The notes under the pieces were generated by a model. That model was given only the letters and a program-made list of their open reading frames with translations. It did not search any database and was not told the DNA's origin. DNA of 36,351 bases from Escherichia coli (GTDB taxonomy: Bacteria; Pseudomonadota; Gammaproteobacteria; Enterobacterales; Enterobacteriaceae). The stretch lies in assembly GCF_017348835.2 (NCBI RefSeq), contig NZ_CP072313.1; one strand, 5' to 3'. The stretch's first letter is position 1. The number at the start of each line of letters is the position of its first letter. This document shows, in pieces, positions 6,237-33,700 of the stretch. The translations under genes were made by a program, and so were the position numbers.

Positions 6237-6491
6237 ATGAAGATTACAACTCTATCCAGTCGGGAACTGAATCAGGATGTAACCAGGGCCAAACGCGCCA
6301 CAAGTGATGGTCCCGTATTTATTACGGATCGGGGTAAAACCGCGCACGTACTTCTTAGTATCGAAGAATACAGGAAATTAACGCAACAACGGCGAACTCT
6401 TATTGACATCCTGGCTATGCCTGATGCTGATGATGTTGAATTTGAACCGCAGCGAATTAATGTTGGTTTAAAACCAGCGGAGTTTTTGTAG
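6237..6491 (+). CDS. vapB: type II antitoxin, Phd/YefM-VapB type
   Basis: N-terminal antitoxin fold pattern (VFITDRGKTAHVLLSIEEYRKL); start of the next gene abuts its stop. Confidence 0.8.
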   Translation: MKITTLSSRELNQDVTRAKRATSDGPVFITDRGKTAHVLLSIEEYRKLTQQRRTLIDILAMPDADDVEFEPQRINVGLKPAEFL

Positions 6492-6907
6492 TGTATATTC
6501 TTGATACAAATGTTATTTCTGAGCTACGAAAGGCCCGTACGGGACGTATAGATAATAATGTTGCAAAATGGGCATTGCATACAGACGCGGCAGATTTCTT
6601 TGTATCTGTTATTACCATAATGGAACTTGAACAGGGAATATTACAGGTTGAGCGTCGAGATATACGCCAGGGGATTATGTTACGTTCCTGGATGGACCAG
6701 CATGTGTTACCAGCGTTTTCTGATAAGATACTTCCTGTAGATACTGCGGTTGCCTTACGTTGTGCTCGGTTACATGTTCCCGACAGACGCAGTGAACGAG
6801 ACGCATTAATAGCGGCAACAGCTCTGGTTCATGGGATGACCGTTGTCACCAGAAATGTTGGTGATTTTGAATTAAGCGGAGTATCAATTATTAATCCCTG
6901 GGATTGA
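6491..6907 (+). CDS. vapC: PIN-domain toxin VapC
   Basis: N-terminal MYILDTNVISE PIN signature with conserved acidic residues; classic antitoxin-toxin arrangement. Confidence 0.85.
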   Translation: MYILDTNVISELRKARTGRIDNNVAKWALHTDAADFFVSVITIMELEQGILQVERRDIRQGIMLRSWMDQHVLPAFSDKILPVDTAVALRCARLHVPDRRSERDALIAATALVHGMTVVTRNVGDFELSGVSIINPWD

Positions 6908-7031: not shown

Positions 7032-7193
7032 TTAAATGCCAAGTTTGCGGCGTGGACTATACAGTGTGTGATTCACCACTATGAATCCTTTGTTGATCCA
7101 CTGTGTTACCTGCGCAGGTTGAACTCCGGTCAGCCTGGCGAACGATGCCTGATTCCCCCGATAGAACTTGTTGATGTATTCAATCAAAGGCAT
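7032..7193 (-). CDS. small Cro/CI-type HTH DNA-binding protein (53 aa, MPLIEYINKFYRGNQASFARLTGVQPAQVTQWINKG...), not in the ORF track
   Basis: ATG with GGAGA about 10 nt upstream on the minus strand; HTH-like QASFARLTGVQPAQVTQW. Confidence 0.5.
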   Translation of the reverse strand: MPLIEYINKFYRGNQASFARLTGVQPAQVTQWINKGFIVVNHTLYSPRRKLGI

Positions 7194-7300
7194 TTTTTAA
7201 TTCTCCGCAACAATACGAAATCATATAGTAATTTACTATATGATTTATCTTTGGCAAGTAATTAACTTATCTGATTTCTTCCATTGGTAAGGGGGCTTTT

Positions 7301-7554
7301 GATGTCGCGCCAGCGACATGTAAGGCGGTACGCTGTGGTTACATGTGGAACTGGAGTAAAACCGCCGAAGCCCGGCGTAAGCCGGTACTGATTGATAGAT
7401 TTCACCTTACCTATCCCCATCCTGCTAAGCCATACCCGCTTTCAGCCATGACGGAGTTTCTGTGCGCGGTCGGAGTGGTCCCGACAAGGGTTTACCCGAA
7501 GTCGGGGCGTATCTCCGCGTTAGCGGGCCGTTAGGGCCGCTTACGAGCGTGTAT
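7301..7554 (+). repeat. type-C structured element copy 1; inverted partner at 35981-36235
   Basis: about 95% identical to the reverse complement of 35981-36235; shares the 5' hairpin and CTGCTAAGCC core with types A and B. Confidence 0.8.
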
Positions 7555-7599
7555 TCGATACTTCCAGCCAGAGGACTGACAGCGACGATGACGCTTAGT

Positions 7600-8148
7600 T
7601 ACAACATCCATTATTAAAAGCGATGTTGTTCCCGCCCTTTGGGCGGGGGCGGCGGCGCTTTTCAGTGATGGGTTGGGCGCTGTGGCTGAGTATTTGCAGC
7701 GTTTTTTGTAGGAGGGTTGGAGGGGCTTTGTTTTTCATCGGGCAGAAGTTCATATGCCCGCCGCGAAGCGGTGGGAGGTACTTTTATATTCTGAGCGGCG
7801 CGGCTTTAGCCGCTGCAAGCGAAGGCATTTTTGTGATTATCCACAGTTGTTTCAAAGATAAATATTTTCCCTGCGGCGAAGCAACGCTGGGGATTAAAGA
7901 ACAGGGGTTAAGAATATATTGCAGGTTTGATCTTCTATGTTTGCTGCTTTCTGAAGTTATTCGTTTGCGGTTTTTTGTGAATAACCGAAGGCGGTTTAGC
8001 TCCGATACCCGATTGTGGCCATCAAAAAACTGTCAGAGCGGGACAAAATGAAAAACGGTCGTCAAAAATGAGGAATTTCATGAAATGCAGGCAACACGAA
8101 AAGCCCCGAAGGGGCTGAAGAGAGTGCCGATTGTATCAGGCAGCTAAA
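7600..8148. other. candidate replication origin region downstream of repA
   Basis: consensus DnaA box TTATCCACA at 7837-7845; GC-rich then A/T-rich blocks; position matches IncFII-type plasmids where the origin lies 3' of repA. Confidence 0.4.
8097..8118 (-). terminator. rho-independent terminator after repA
   Basis: minus-strand RNA forms GCCCC-UUC-GGGGC followed by UUUU, about 30 nt after the repA stop. Confidence 0.5.
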
Positions 8149-9204
8149 CTAGTGGGGTGGAGAAGCTGTCAGGGCCAGTTCAAGCTGACGTAGATCCCTG
8201 GCTACCAGTTGCTCTAATCTTTCTTTAGTGCACCAGTACGCTTCGTCCGGCGACATACGCTTCAGAATAAACCGTGCAATTTCGTTTCGCTGTTCATCAT
8301 ACGGCAGTTTTGCAAGGCGATTGGCACGTTTGCGCTTTGCTGCTTTCTCTCGTCGGAACTTGATGGCATCGAGAGAACGCTGCGCATACCAGCGTTTACG
8401 AGCCGAGTGAACAGAGATTTCCTCGCCCTCGCGGATAACGCCTTCTTTAATCAGTTGCAGACGGATTTCACTTTCTGCAAGGCGCTTACGTTGCTGTTCC
8501 TGAAGTTTCACCAGATCAACTCCCAGCATTTTCCAGCCAGTTTCGGTGATCCAGACGTATTTCGGCAGTCGCTGGCGGGATTCACGGTCCCATATCGTCT
8601 TTTCTGACGTTCCCAACGTGCCAAAGGAAACCTGCTCTGCCAGCAGACGGGAAAGGCGCGATACTGTGACTGCGGTTTCAGGAATAACGTTTCCCTTACT
8701 GTCTTTTGGGCTTATTTCTTCTGCCAGGCGGGAGACAGACATGCCGACAGTGTGCAATCCACGATCACAAAAACTCACAAGTACAACCCATATTGCGTCA
8801 AGCAGCCGCTGTTTCTCCGGTCGGAATTTATATTTGCGACCGACACTCTGACGTTTCAGTACATAAAATGGATGCAACGACATATGCATTCTGAGTGTGT
8901 ACTGACCAGTGACCGGGTCTTTTTTAACGAGACGATTGTAAGCGTGGCCCAACTGTCCGCCCAGCGCCTTATAGCTGTCGGGACGGAACCAGGCTGGATT
9001 CTCACACTTTGGCTTAGTGGAATGTTCACCACGGCGGCGCTTCGTGCTCCGTTTTTCCGGTTCAACCAGAAATGACGTGGCCCTGCCCGATTCGTAATCC
9101 TCCCAGAAAAGGATTTGCTCTTCGGGAGACAGTTCACTCCAGTGTAATGAAGGCCTGTTCAGGGAAGCCATAAGCAATCGCTTATGGCAGAGCTTGATTC
9201 GCAC
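8149..9204 (-). CDS. repA: plasmid replication initiator RepA (IncFII/IncI-complex RepA family)
   Basis: overall resemblance to RepA1/RepZ-type initiators; GTG start at 9204, alternative ATG at 9171; terminator and DnaA box downstream, antisense-RNA-like hairpin upstream. Confidence 0.7.
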   Translation of the reverse strand: MRIKLCHKRLLMASLNRPSLHWSELSPEEQILFWEDYESGRATSFLVEPEKRSTKRRRGEHSTKPKCENPAWFRPDSYKALGGQLGHAYNRLVKKDPVTGQYTLRMHMSLHPFYVLKRQSVGRKYKFRPEKQRLLDAIWVVLVSFCDRGLHTVGMSVSRLAEEISPKDSKGNVIPETAVTVSRLSRLLAEQVSFGTLGTSEKTIWDRESRQRLPKYVWITETGWKMLGVDLVKLQEQQRKRLAESEIRLQLIKEGVIREGEEISVHSARKRWYAQRSLDAIKFRREKAAKRKRANRLAKLPYDEQRNEIARFILKRMSPDEAYWCTKERLEQLVARDLRQLELALTASPPH

Positions 9205-9264
9205 AGTGCATTTTTACACCGGACGATATTGAATAATGAGGAAAGCATCATGTATACTGTCTTC

Positions 9265-9346
9265 CAAGGGATTTCCCCTGCCCCCATTAAACTTTGATCG
9301 GCCTCTGCCAAGAAACGGATGCAAAGTTAATGGGGGTTTGTTTTTT
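9265..9346 (+). ncRNA. candidate antisense copy-control RNA (CopA/Inc-RNA-like) in the repA leader
   Basis: plus-strand promoter -35 TTGAAT (9229-9234), 18-bp spacer, -10 TATACT (9253-9258); 15-bp stem (9281-9296 with 9322-9336) followed by T-run 9337-9346. Confidence 0.45.
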
Positions 9347-10061
9347 ATGGCTTCATGGAATCTTTCAACTCCTGCCATACACCTGAATGCCTTATGGCGC
9401 ATCCTACCTTTATCCCCTATGACGGGGACCAAATTTCTCAAATTTAAGCGAAGATCAAAAAGGATCAACACCGAATGCCGCTTAATATACCTGTAGCCCT
9501 CCGATTTGAAAAGTGTTTGTCGTGACGCTCATTCCACCAATCTCGCCAAATCAGCACATCCGGCACTGCCGATGAAACAATCAAAAAGTATTTTTTTTCG
9601 CCACTTCTTTAATTTTTAGAATATTAGATCGTGAATGATCTATTCAACGATCTATCATACCAATATAAAAGCTGATTTTAGAATTTTATACTTTTTATTT
9701 TGATTTATGCGGGATAATAGATCGCCTAAACCACCTTGAACGATCTATTGTACTGGTTTAAAGTCTCCATGTTGAAGTTTTCCGCTATCAGCAGAACGCC
9801 CGAACAAGGCGTTATTCGTACGCTCTTTAACACCCCTGGACAGCGGTAATTGCCTGAAGCCCTGGCATGAGGAGGATTAATTGTGTGCAAAAAACAGCAC
9901 TTGCTGACAATGTTCAGTGTGGGCTACGTATAGAGTGACGTGCCGCGCCATCTGACAGGTAACGACTCATTTTTACAATTTTCAACATAGTTAATTCCCT
10001 TTATCAAACTCGATTCCCTGAAAGGGGGATTAACTGTGTACGAAAAGTACAGGAGATAATA

Positions 10062-10600: not shown

Positions 10601-10799
10601 GATGCCGCGCCAGCGGCATGTAAGGCGGCACTCTGTACTTAAATATGGCTTTGCGGGTTATCCGCCGAAGCCCCGCGCCAGCGGGTACTGTCTTCTATAT
10701 TCTCTGGAACTGCGCTCGCGCCCCCTGCTAAGCCCAAAACGCACGGAACCAACAGCTACACGGTTGTTTCTGGTCGAAGACCGACACTGCTGAAGCGAT
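10601..10799 (+). repeat. type-B structured element copy 1
   Basis: hairpin ATGCCGC-GCCA-GCGGCAT, then TAAGGCGG, CCGCCGAAGCC, CTGCTAAGCC, TTGTTTCTGGTCGAAGA; starts at the stop codon of the upstream gene. Confidence 0.8.
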
Positions 10800-29553: not shown

Positions 29554-29684
29554 TATCTAATGACACGTCTGAAGTATCCGATTAACCAGGGGTGGTTTGT
29601 CGACTTTAGATTGTGCCATATATGGAGTTGTTAGAAGAAAAGGGACTTCCTCCGGTCGGAGCCACCAACTCAAGGCCGGAAAAC

Positions 29685-29716
29685 AAAAAAGCCCGATTAC
29701 CAGTCGGGCTTTTTTG
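29685..29716. terminator. bidirectional rho-independent terminator between convergent topB and relaxase genes
   Basis: AAAAAA-AGCCCGA-TTACCAG-TCGGGCT-TTTTTT; works on both strands. Confidence 0.6.
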
Positions 29717-29723
29717 TTTCTGA

Positions 29724-32700
29724 TTAACGGGACCGCGTGTTATCCCTGTTTCTTTCCCGTTCACGCTCATTTTTCAAAGCGTTGTCATAACTCACTATTT
29801 CACGCTTCACGGCCTCTACCGTTTCAGGTTTTTTCATTGCTGCCTTGAGATCGTTTACATCCTCAAAACGTATGAATTTGAGCGTATCTTTGACTGTTTG
29901 TTTGTCAATATTCATTTCCTTCGCCAGTTGCTTAGAAATTCGCTCAATTTCTCTTTCCATCGCTTTTTCACTATTGACAGTCCGCTTTTTCTTTTCTGTA
30001 GTATTCTCGTTTTTTTCCTCGACTGATTTAGCTTTTTTCTGCCCTTGTTGTTCCTCAAAGGCTTTAATCTGTTCATTAATCGTCTGAGCACGGGCCGAAA
30101 TACTGTTAACCCCTTTCGAAAGCAGATCAACCTCTTCTTTCGGCGCACCATTTTCTACAGCTTCATTCAGTAAACGCTGGGCTTCCTGGTGCTGGCTGGC
30201 AATAACTTTTGCCTCTTCCTGTAGCTGCTGTAGCGATGCGTTATTTTGCTGATGAGGATTTTCAGTGGCTAACGCGGATTTGCTTTGCTCATCTCCGGTC
30301 TGTTTATCCTGACCAGTAGTCACGTCTTTCTCTGTTACCGGCTTCTGTTGCTGCGCTTCTTGTGGCTGCTGCTCGCGTTCTTCAGAATGAGCCGAAACGT
30401 TCTGCTGCACAGACTCCTGTTTTTCCGCTTCCTGTACCACGGATGTTTCAGACGTGGATTTTTGAGAAACAGTTTCTGACTTAACAGGCTGTTCCGGCAC
30501 TGCATCACGCGATTTATCATCATTATGTACAGATTCCGCTACTTCGGGCGTTCTTTCCTTAGCCTGGGTGTCTTTCTCGACTGAATTAACCTGCTCTGCT
30601 CTCTTTTCCTGCTCCTGTTCTGGTTTCTGTCCGGCGACTTGTTGCTGACGCTCTGCCTCGACGCTGTTTTCATGTCCATGTTCAGCTTTCAGTTCCTGGA
30701 GGCGGACCTGCATCATTTCATGATATTTTTCAGGTCGCAGAATAACATTCATCCCCTTCTCGGCTGCCGCCATTGCACAGGCTACCTTAAATTCTTCCGA
30801 GCCATTGAGTTTCAGCATCCCACCAAATTTCTCTTTTGCATAAAGAAGGGCTGCTTCAGCTTTATCCTGGGTAATTTCACCATTTACACGAACATGATTT
30901 CCTTTATCAGTGAAAACAGTCTGTGTTGTCTTCGGATCAAGGTAACGCGTTTCTTTTGGGCTGACCTTATGAGGAACAAGATCGGTTAGTTCACGTTTTA
31001 CATAATCCTGAACTTGCTGGGATTGCTGTACTCGCTTAACTACGCTGAAAACTTCCTTTTCATTACCGGAAGAAATGCTGTTTCCATCAACCGGATTACG
31101 GATTATCTTTTTTAAAGAATCACCTAAAGCCATATCATATCTCCTGTCTGGATTCCAACGGTGATAGTATGAGTTTATTTCGCGAAAACATGCCTTTCGA
31201 ATTGAGTTTATTTCACTCTCTCTTTCCAGCTTTTTAAATATAATGTACCCTCTAGCAACCTCCCGTTCCTGCTTGTTTCTTATCGCCAGAAGCCCTCTGA
31301 GTTCTGCCCTGTAATTAGCTATATTATCATTATGCTTATATTTAATCTCATTATTTACCCAACCTTTATGTTCATTTAAACAAATAAATCTTTCTTTTGC
31401 CTGTTGACGCGTAAGATTTACACGGGTAATAACAGCATCAAAAGGTTTGTTATCTTTCTGATCCTGCCAGATATCAAGTAATACCTCTTTTGCCTCATCC
31501 CATTCAAGATTCAGATGTTTAGTTAAAAAATCACTGGCATTCATATTTCGATTGCCAACTCTGAAACGCGGAGATCCATCCTGTCCATAGGTGACAGTAT
31601 GCTTTGATGGATCTATGTTAAAGCGTGTTTGCAGATTGGACAAATAACGTTCAGCATTAATTTCTGTGCGAATTTGTTTCAAAAAAGGTAAATCATCACT
31701 GCGCTGAATCGCCGCTTTAATATTTGATTCAAGCGCTGACTGAACTACTCTTCTTCCTGCTCTATCCTGCAACCGTCGCACATATCGATCTGGATCGACT
31801 TTTTGTCGTCCAGCCGTTGATAAATAACCGTATTCATTTTGCTGCAATAACAACTGAGATTTATTAATGCTTTTCCCACCTGATCTTCCGTGAAGTCCGT
31901 AAACCAGTTTGCGTGCTGGCAGACGTGGCAATCCGATTGTCTTACCGGATACAAACTTTCCGGTATTGTATTTAATACCGGACTGGTCACTATTCTGTCG
32001 TCGGTCCTGTCTTTGAAGGTTGTGTTTTTCGTCATAACGATTAATTACCTTTTTCAGATACATTTGCTTATCTTCACCAGCAAGTGCTGCATATTCTTTA
32101 CGAATTTTTTGCCCTGCCGGATGAATATGTTTTATCTCATGACTGATCGAACTCTTCCAGTCTTTCAGATGACTCTCAATCTGCGTCTTTGTGGGTTTTA
32201 AAAGTGGTATAGTTCGATCAGAGATATACTGACGTGAAAATAAAGGGCTTTTGAGTCGAGTAAATTTAGAGTCTCCTTCGAGCTTCACACCAAAGTAGCG
32301 ATCAGACTTCCCCTTATTATACTCCTTTACCTCACCAAAACGGGAAAGATAATCAGAAAATTGTTTCTCTGTTCGGATATTCTCTGTATCCAGCGCATCA
32401 AAAACCGTGGTTTTAAACTCACTGTGCCGCTCACGGTAAAAATCGCCTTTAGCCCTGGATAATACATTAGCGTGGTTATGGTCACTGACTCTGACACCAT
32501 CTTTAGGAGAAACAAGATTGTATTTATTATTAATGTGCTCCTGTATGGCATCAAGATGTTTCAAATAATGGTTAATAACTCCCCCAGGATTTAGTTTATT
32601 TCCTGTCACCAGATTAACTTCAGGGATAACAATGTGAATGTGAGGCTTACGCTCAACCATTTCTCCTGTTTTATGATCAGGCATCTGTTTTATTTTTGGA

Positions 32701-33409: not shown

Positions 33410-33560
33410 ATAGCGACCTGGTTGTAGAGATATACTGGGGTATTAGGGGGAGATCCCCCTAAGCACGTCGATTATACCGGAATTTATTCCGTGTATACAT
33501 CGCTGTCGTGCCTGTGTCTTGTAGTAAGATCAATTGAACAAGTCACAAGCCCACATTACA
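33410..33560. other. putative origin of transfer (oriT)
   Basis: intergenic between divergent relaxase operon and stb-like genes; perfect inverted repeat TTAGGGGG-AGAT-CCCCCTAA at 33443-33462; second repeat CGGAAT-TTA-TTCCG nearby. Confidence 0.5.
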
Positions 33561-33700
33561 ACCTACACAACAACCCACACACAAAAGCATGAAGCCCACA
33601 AAACAACCCACACTTAAACCCACAAAAAAGACCACAAAACCTATTGACAACCCACACAACACCCCACATAATCACCCACACTAACGAAAAGCAAATTGAT
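33545..33700. repeat. array of about 9 CCCACA-containing direct repeats at about 10-12 bp spacing
   Basis: CCCACA recurs (agCCCACAtt, caaCCCACAcac, agCCCACAaaa, aaCCCACActt, aaCCCACAaaa, ...), upstream of the StbA-like gene. Confidence 0.6.

Follow-up and report, generated by a model that had tools for sequence, protein, structure and literature searches.

Gene content and relatives of the repA locus

The DNA analyzed here, referred to as the window, is a stretch of 36,351 bp that carries a gene for a replication initiator, repA, on its minus strand (ORF 8149-9204, with the stop codon at 8149-8151). Because repA lies on the minus strand, "downstream" means toward decreasing coordinates. The start of the gene at position 9171 is the RefSeq repA start transferred from plasmid pDETEC35, which is 99.9% identical. 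Positions 7200-9700 of the window share 99.5 to 99.9% identity with four IncI2-typed Escherichia coli plasmids of 31 to 38 kb and about 96% with a few further IncI2-typed plasmids. Across the body of repA and the DNA that follows it, the classical IncI2 plasmids (57 to 63 kb) show 95.7% identity. The elements of the locus are listed below in repA orientation, with offsets (+) counted from the first base past the repA stop codon.

8149-9171, minus strand: repA, replication initiator of 340 aa, a RepZ-type I-complex protein (ORF and RefSeq repA of pDETEC35)
8095-8116, minus strand: hairpin terminator after the repA stop, +33 to +54; stem-loop 8102-8116 followed by TTTCGTG
7985-8148, minus strand: CIS-like spacer of 164 bp from the repA stop to the origin core (delimited by the offset of the proximal DnaA box)
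7976-7984, minus strand: proximal DnaA box TTATTCACA, +165; fits TTWTNCACA, one mismatch to the perfect box
7965-7973, minus strand: putative RepA box 1 AAACCGCAA, +176; GCAA kept in 7/7 plasmids
7941-7949, minus strand: putative RepA box 2 AAGCAGCAA, +200; identical in 5/5 IncI2 sequences
7919-7927, minus strand: putative RepA box 3 AACCTGCAA, +222; pairs with CTGCAA in R64, pEC7 and pCTX-M3
7908-7913, minus strand: TCTTAA hexamer beside the last RepA box, +236
7850-7869, no strand assigned: AT-rich stretch (17/20 A/T) adjoining the distal DnaA box, about +280 to +299; the least stable 20-mer of the segment
7837-7845, plus strand: distal DnaA box, perfect TTATCCACA, inverted relative to repA (motif search)
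7757-7775, plus strand: GC hairpin CCCGCCGCGAAGCGGTGGG followed by a T-run (terminator scan)
7616-7662, no strand assigned: nested hairpin AAAAGCG...CCCGCCC TTT GGGCGGG...CGCTTTT beside Ter (sequence reading)
7592-7614, minus strand: putative Tus-Ter site, core GGATGTTGTAACTA at 7596-7609
7296-7590, plus strand: conserved hairpin-rich block, nearly identical across Inc groups

In BLASTP comparisons, RepA showed 75% identity to RepZ of R64 (IncI1), 74% to RepA of pEC7 (IncI-gamma/K1), 70% to the initiator of a Klebsiella plasmid typed IncFII, and 42% to RepA of pCTX-M3 (IncL/M), with no significant match to RepA1 of R100. The Pfam IncFII_repA model scored 28.7 bits, narrowly above its cut-off. 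Owing to the RepZ-like identities, the missing match to RepA1, and the marginal Pfam score, we assign the replicon by protein sequence to the I-complex branch of the RepA superfamily, IncI2, rather than to IncFII proper. In the I-complex replicon, RepA binds a downstream oriV (PMC10286972).

Upstream of repA, the region 9140-9720 with the promoter, leader, and antisense RNA is common to only 12 plasmids in PLSDB. The match to classical IncI2 plasmids ends at about 9144, and the N terminus of RepA (MASLNRPSLHW...) is unlike the start of the protein in R721 and pHNSHP45. Rfam searches at gathering thresholds gave no match in the replicon. At a relaxed threshold, a sub-threshold match to PK-repZ appeared upstream of repA at 9184-9341 (minus strand); CopA gave no match at its gathering threshold and none at E ≤ 1. 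The region 9140-9720 looks like part of a hybrid replicon, which may have an incompatibility behavior of its own. A natural case of exchange between control-region and initiator/origin modules is found in the plasmid of E. coli 55989 (L004), where, within positions 236-2338, control genes of the IncFII type (for a CopB-like regulator, plus a short fragment of repA) precede and are joined to a repA and origin of the I-complex type.

Past the hairpin-rich block, the window continues with a 53-aa ORF (7032-7193, minus strand) and a Phd/VapC toxin-antitoxin pair (6237-6907, plus strand); in two classical IncI2 records, hok and a ProQ/FinO (PcnR-type) gene directly follow the block. Elsewhere in the window, about ten irregular copies of a 12-mer with CCCACA (consensus ACAACCCACACA) occupy the intergenic stretch 33545-33681, flanked on one side by a minus-strand operon whose last ORF has 1095 aa and on the other by plus-strand genes. 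These may be transfer-origin or regulator-binding repeats. The sole Rfam match above the gathering score in the window, AgrB (RF02891; 61.9 bits), lies at 29631-29716 on the plus strand and adjoins the end of the 1095-aa ORF. AgrB is the antisense RNA of a DinQ-type toxin system.

Conserved motifs and structures downstream of repA

A preliminary description of this DNA had proposed a candidate origin with a perfect DnaA box at 7837-7845, about 300 bp past the repA stop and its terminator. Box and spacing were both borne out: a search of both strands of the window (36,351 bp) gave TTATCCACA on the plus strand as the sole perfect DnaA box, and it starts 304 nt after the repA stop, with the hairpin 8102-8116 in between. 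The chance expectation for a perfect 9-mer is about 0.28 per whole window and about 0.004 per 549-bp segment such as 7600-8148. A second box, TTATTCACA on the repA-proximal side of the core, was not mentioned in the preliminary description. The relaxed consensus TTWTNCACA fits just eight sites in the window, including this facing pair, whose members are separated by 139 bp. All five IncI2 sequences aligned have a perfect distal box, an invariance that by itself is weak evidence in a group only 3 to 8% diverged in this region. The proximal box is the perfect TTATCCACA in three of the five and TTATTAACA in one; TTATTCACA is found in the window and its near-identical relatives.

We aligned seven plasmids from the repA stop onward, i.e., the IncI2 window, R64, pEC7 (IncI-gamma/K1), the 55989 plasmid, the Klebsiella plasmid, pCTX-M3, and R100. 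The replicon of pCTX-M3 is 96% identical to that of pMU604 (IncL/M) and was hence used as its proxy (PMC8125031). Element order was the same in all seven and spacing nearly so. At the column of the proximal DnaA box, TTATCCACA was found in R64, pEC7, the IncFII-typed Klebsiella plasmid, and R100, and CTATCCACA in pCTX-M3, at offsets of +165 in the window, +167 in R64 and pEC7, +156 in pCTX-M3, and +176 in R100. The column of the distal box is box-like in all seven plasmids, with GTG.A kept in 7/7; it reads TAATCCACA in pCTX-M3, CTGTCCACA in R100, and TTGTTCACA in R64. According to this alignment, the R1/R100 oriR box corresponds to the weaker box at 7976-7984, and the perfect box stands at the distal edge of the core. 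Work on IncL/M from 2003 reportedly found the proximal DnaA box dispensable provided that the distal box was intact. By analogy, this precedent would explain why the proximal box has drifted in IncI2 beside an ever-perfect distal box.

The three putative RepA boxes, 9-mers of the NANCYGCAA type, are dispersed at intervals of 24 and 22 bp. This motif is the IncL/M consensus, and it fits all three boxes of pCTX-M3. In box 2, an A stands at the Y position of the IncL/M consensus, as in all IncI2 sequences, and boxes 1 and 3 vary at one base among the five IncI2 sequences. The corresponding offsets are +178, +202, and +224 in R64 and +167, +191, and +213 in pCTX-M3. For R721 and pHNSHP45, a comparative study of 66 I-complex plasmids reported three iterons as putative RepZ-binding sites, 176 to 301 bp downstream of repZ; its Table S1 gives them as AAACCCGCAA, AAAGCAGCAA, and AAACCCGCAA for iterons 1, 2, and 3 (PMC6361801). 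The three RepA boxes of the window are the same sites as these IncI2 iterons, and box 2 matches iteron 2, AAAGCAGCAA. Tandem Repeats Finder detected no tandem iteron array in or near the segment. The earlier remark that no obvious iteron array is present thus holds for tandem arrays but passes over the three dispersed, putatively initiator-binding repeats. Tandem iterons of 17 to 22 bp next to AT-rich DNA, as in origins of the F, P1, pSC101, and R6K style, were not found; only dispersed 9- to 10-mers are present.

The TCTTAA hexamer is in register in five of the seven plasmids (+236 in the window, +238 in R64 and pEC7, +233 in the Klebsiella plasmid, and +227 in pCTX-M3) and falls inside a low-stability 20-mer at 7909-7928 in a nearest-neighbor scan. 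By analogy, it is the likely site of first strand opening; the opening role of TCTTAA is reportedly known from work on IncB plasmid pMU720. The core as a whole is only moderately AT-rich (GC 0.37 to 0.45), which counts against the origin model.

In a BLASTN search with 7600-8148 as the query, the roughly 160 bp of spacer next to repA matched IncI2 records only, among the matches listed. The terminator scan identified a terminator-like hairpin at 8116-8102 (minus strand), AGCCCCTTCGGGGCT followed by TTTCGTGTTG, and in the seven-plasmid alignment the I-complex and Klebsiella plasmids keep the hairpin CAGCCCCTYCGGGGCTTT. Beyond the distal end of the core, the block ACCTCCCACCGC...GCGGCGGG is kept in I-complex, Klebsiella, and R100 sequences, and the hairpin at 7757-7775 could stop transcription coming into the origin from that side. 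A variable spacer separates it from the nested hairpin at 7616-7662, which is kept in 6/7 aligned plasmids. The last ~70 bp of the BLASTN query were matched in every listed row, the weakest included.

The Ter core consensus GNRNGTTGTAAYKA is matched just once in the window, by GGATGTTGTAACTA, whose G6 is base 7609. This site is located at +544 (+541 in R64), and ATGTTGTAACTA is invariant in all seven aligned plasmids. In R1, oriR is separated from the leading-strand start by two ter sites, of which terRL stops the counter-clockwise fork and terRR the clockwise fork after a full circuit; at an arrested fork, the C at position 6 belongs to the strand that serves as leading-strand template (PMC10331603). 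When the C6 rule from this review is applied to the site in the window, its polarity is such that it should, by analogy with terRR, arrest forks heading from repA and the origin toward lower coordinates. As in R100, Ter stands between the core and the presumed priming site, and the need for the first helicase to pass a site that blocks forks leaving the origin is a point against the model.

The hairpin-rich block at 7296-7590 matches the repA4/ter/priming region of R100, downstream of oriR, in which the leading strand starts. Folding of its plus strand was better than in 200 of 200 shuffled sequences (z = -2.57; minus strand, z = -1.07), and eight predicted pairs show compensatory changes. For a fork that moves from the origin toward lower coordinates, the plus strand would serve as the leading-strand template. 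From sequence and predicted structure, the block is probably a single-strand priming signal. In a transposon screen, the repA4/ter/priming region and oriV were both needed for maintenance of an R100-like replicon (PMC4398462). A BLASTN search of the block against phage genomes, in which similarity to the phage G4 origin was sought, gave no match.

A part of the block recurs in the window as a direct repeat of 101 nt with 74% identity (7301-7401 and 10601-10701, same orientation). The repeat unit is the outer hairpin module of the block, whose hairpins show compensatory changes across Inc groups, and the second copy lies just upstream of VirB-type secretion genes. This copy may be a second single-strand initiation or single-strand promoter element.

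Proposed initiation at the origin and alternative readings

Region ~7296-8148 (minus strand) is, with high confidence, the vegetative origin of an IncI2 (I-complex) plasmid together with its flanking cis-acting sequences. The grounds are sequence homology, element order, spacing, and conservation, from which we infer the binding, melting, priming, and arrest events. The earlier suggestion of a candidate origin is right because the segment is homologous to origins directly downstream of repA or repZ, with the same order and spacing. In sensitive BLASTN searches, 7600-7989 aligned over 390 bp at about 78% identity with IncI-gamma/K1 DNA just downstream of repA and at 67 to 69% with IncFII-typed Klebsiella plasmids. 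GC skew at a 2-kb scale followed gene orientation and gave no origin mark. Literature searches found no experiment on this plasmid and no experimentally mapped IncI2 origin, only the comparative assignment of putative iterons and a study of IncI2 copy control in NAR in 2021, of which origin mapping was not a part.

The elements suggest the following course of initiation. Transcription of repA would terminate at the CIS hairpin (8102-8116), so that newly made RepA is kept acting in cis. RepA would then fill its three boxes, about two helical turns apart, in a cooperative manner, with host DnaA occupying the two facing boxes that flank them, the weaker TTATTCACA at 7976-7984 and the perfect TTATCCACA at 7837-7845. 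RepA, with help from DnaA, might open about one helical turn of DNA just past box 3, at TCTTAA (7908-7913), with the opening extending up to 7850-7869, and DnaB would be loaded after melting. Unwinding toward lower coordinates would expose 7296-7590 on the plus strand, where primase could begin the leading strand. A single, unidirectional fork would circle the plasmid and be arrested by Tus at 7592-7614, just before its own start. These steps are modeled on characterized relatives, in part on IncB pMU720, IncL/M pMU604, and R1.

The preliminary description had called the arrangement IncFII-type. The layout downstream of repA is indeed shared, and one might go further and regard the perfect box as the direct counterpart of the R1/R100 oriR box, in an IncFII-proper origin about 300 bp past repA: a TTATCCACA also lies downstream of repA in R100, the origin DNA of R100 can be aligned with the window, and RepA exceeds the Pfam IncFII_repA cut-off. 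We consider this very unlikely. The R100 box (+176) aligns with TTATTCACA (+165), and the inverted perfect box aligns with CTGTCCACA at the far end of oriR, so that the two perfect boxes are not equivalent. Moreover, RepA is of the I-complex type and has no BLASTP similarity to R100 RepA1, the Rfam searches gave no CopA and only the weak PK-repZ match, and one of the paired ter sites of R100 is missing.

Two further readings deny the box a role in initiation at this place. It could be a chance occurrence or a regulatory site, serving a local promoter or DnaA titration, with the true origin elsewhere, for example at ~9570-9720. A weak promoter-like match does overlap the box (7855-7827, minus strand), one perfect 9-mer in a window of 36 kb is not improbable, and 9570-9720 is the most AT-rich DNA near repA (GC 0.22 to 0.28). 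Yet the box sits at a conserved column across at least four Inc groups, with fixed spacing to the RepA boxes and Ter, and the arrays reported by Tandem Repeats Finder (30341-30369 and 33545-33681 only) are both far from repA. In pHNSHP45, the DNA upstream of repA comprises a promoter, a leader peptide, and an antisense RNA but no origin (NAR 2021 study). We rejected 9570-9720 as an origin, as it contains no TTWTNCACA site and the origin homology lies downstream of repA; a chance or regulatory box is even less probable than an IncFII-proper origin. Least credible of all is that the segment is protein-coding and the DnaA box incidental. The ORF at 7623-8051 (plus strand, 142 aa) is uninterrupted, and the corresponding CDS is annotated as "hypothetical protein" in CP088385; however, it has no Pfam match, the region is unannotated in RefSeq pDETEC35, conservation sits in short DNA motifs and hairpins, and indels between relatives are not multiples of three. 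The ORF, which spans the entire origin core, is probably a spurious gene call.

With the region read as an I-complex origin, its layout is one already described in the literature; the finding is correct but not new. The present map places the origin, RepA boxes, DnaA boxes, Ter, and priming block where public plasmid records lack annotation, with a spacing that is common, nearly base for base, to IncI2, IncI1, IncK, IncL/M, and IncFII plasmids. It is of use for replicon typing, mini-replicon design, and removal of the spurious ORF call. With IncI2 plasmids being major mcr-1 carriers, a precise origin map has some practical use, new biology not being implied. As a tentative and rather doubtful idea, the lineage of 31 to 45 kb could be a hybrid that combines the C-terminal part of an IncI2 RepA and its origin with a rare control region and a decayed proximal box, DnaA acting mainly via the distal box. 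In that case, these plasmids might form a subgroup that is compatible with IncI2 and has a shifted DnaA dependence.

Comparison with known plasmid origins

The closest known systems are the classical IncI2 plasmids R721 and pHNSHP45, in which the C-terminal part of repA and the origin are 95.7 to 97.5% identical to the window. They share the positions of the elements, the perfect distal DnaA box, and iteron 2 (AAAGCAGCAA). Iterons 1 and 3 differ by one base each (AAAACCGCAA and AAACCTGCAA here versus AAACCCGCAA), and the proximal box is TTATCCACA there versus TTATTCACA here. The 5' end of repA and the entire upstream control region are different.

The IncI1, IncB, and IncK replicons (ColIb-P9, R64, and pMU720) likewise have a cis-acting RepZ or RepA (74 to 75% identical to RepA of the window) with CIS and ori, and the CIS hairpin, DnaA box, three GCAA boxes, TCTTAA, Ter, and priming block keep within a register of 2 to 3 bp. 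In contrast, the 160 bp of CIS beside repA are unalignable, R64 and pEC7 have a degenerate distal box (TTGTTCACA) in place of the perfect one here, and no pseudoknot-type control region can be recognized in the window at the Rfam threshold (30.6 versus 44 bits). IncL/M plasmid pCTX-M3 shares the DnaA box, three NANCYGCAA boxes, TCTTAA, and the inverted distal box (TAATCCACA, at +291 versus +304). Its RepA, however, is just 42% identical, the DNA can be aligned at the motifs only, and an additional box-like site is present at +129.

In common with IncFII plasmids R1 and R100, the window has a DnaA box about 170 nt past the repA stop, the core, ter, and a nearly identical priming block. Unlike the window with its three GCAA boxes, R100 has one in register. 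Its two opposed ter sites are GTTACAAC at +409 and GTTGTAAC at +547, of which the latter alone has a counterpart in the window and in the I-complex plasmids. The IncFII initiator lacks BLASTP similarity to RepA, and control of the CopA/CopB type is not present here.

The sequence features that characterize I-complex and IncL/M origins were found, namely, a RepZ/RepA-type initiator, a CIS of about 160 bp with a terminator, three putative RepA boxes right after a DnaA box, and TCTTAA. From the IncFII oriR set, the DnaA box at about 170 nt was found, but a RepA1 with CopA/CopB/Tap and paired ter sites were not. The block at 7296-7590, highly similar to R100 at the corresponding place, is a candidate for the primase-dependent priming site (G site) of this set. 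By every sequence criterion testable, the segment classifies as an origin of the I-complex/IncL/M type, which appears to share ancestry and working mode with IncFII oriR while lacking two of the features that define IncFII.
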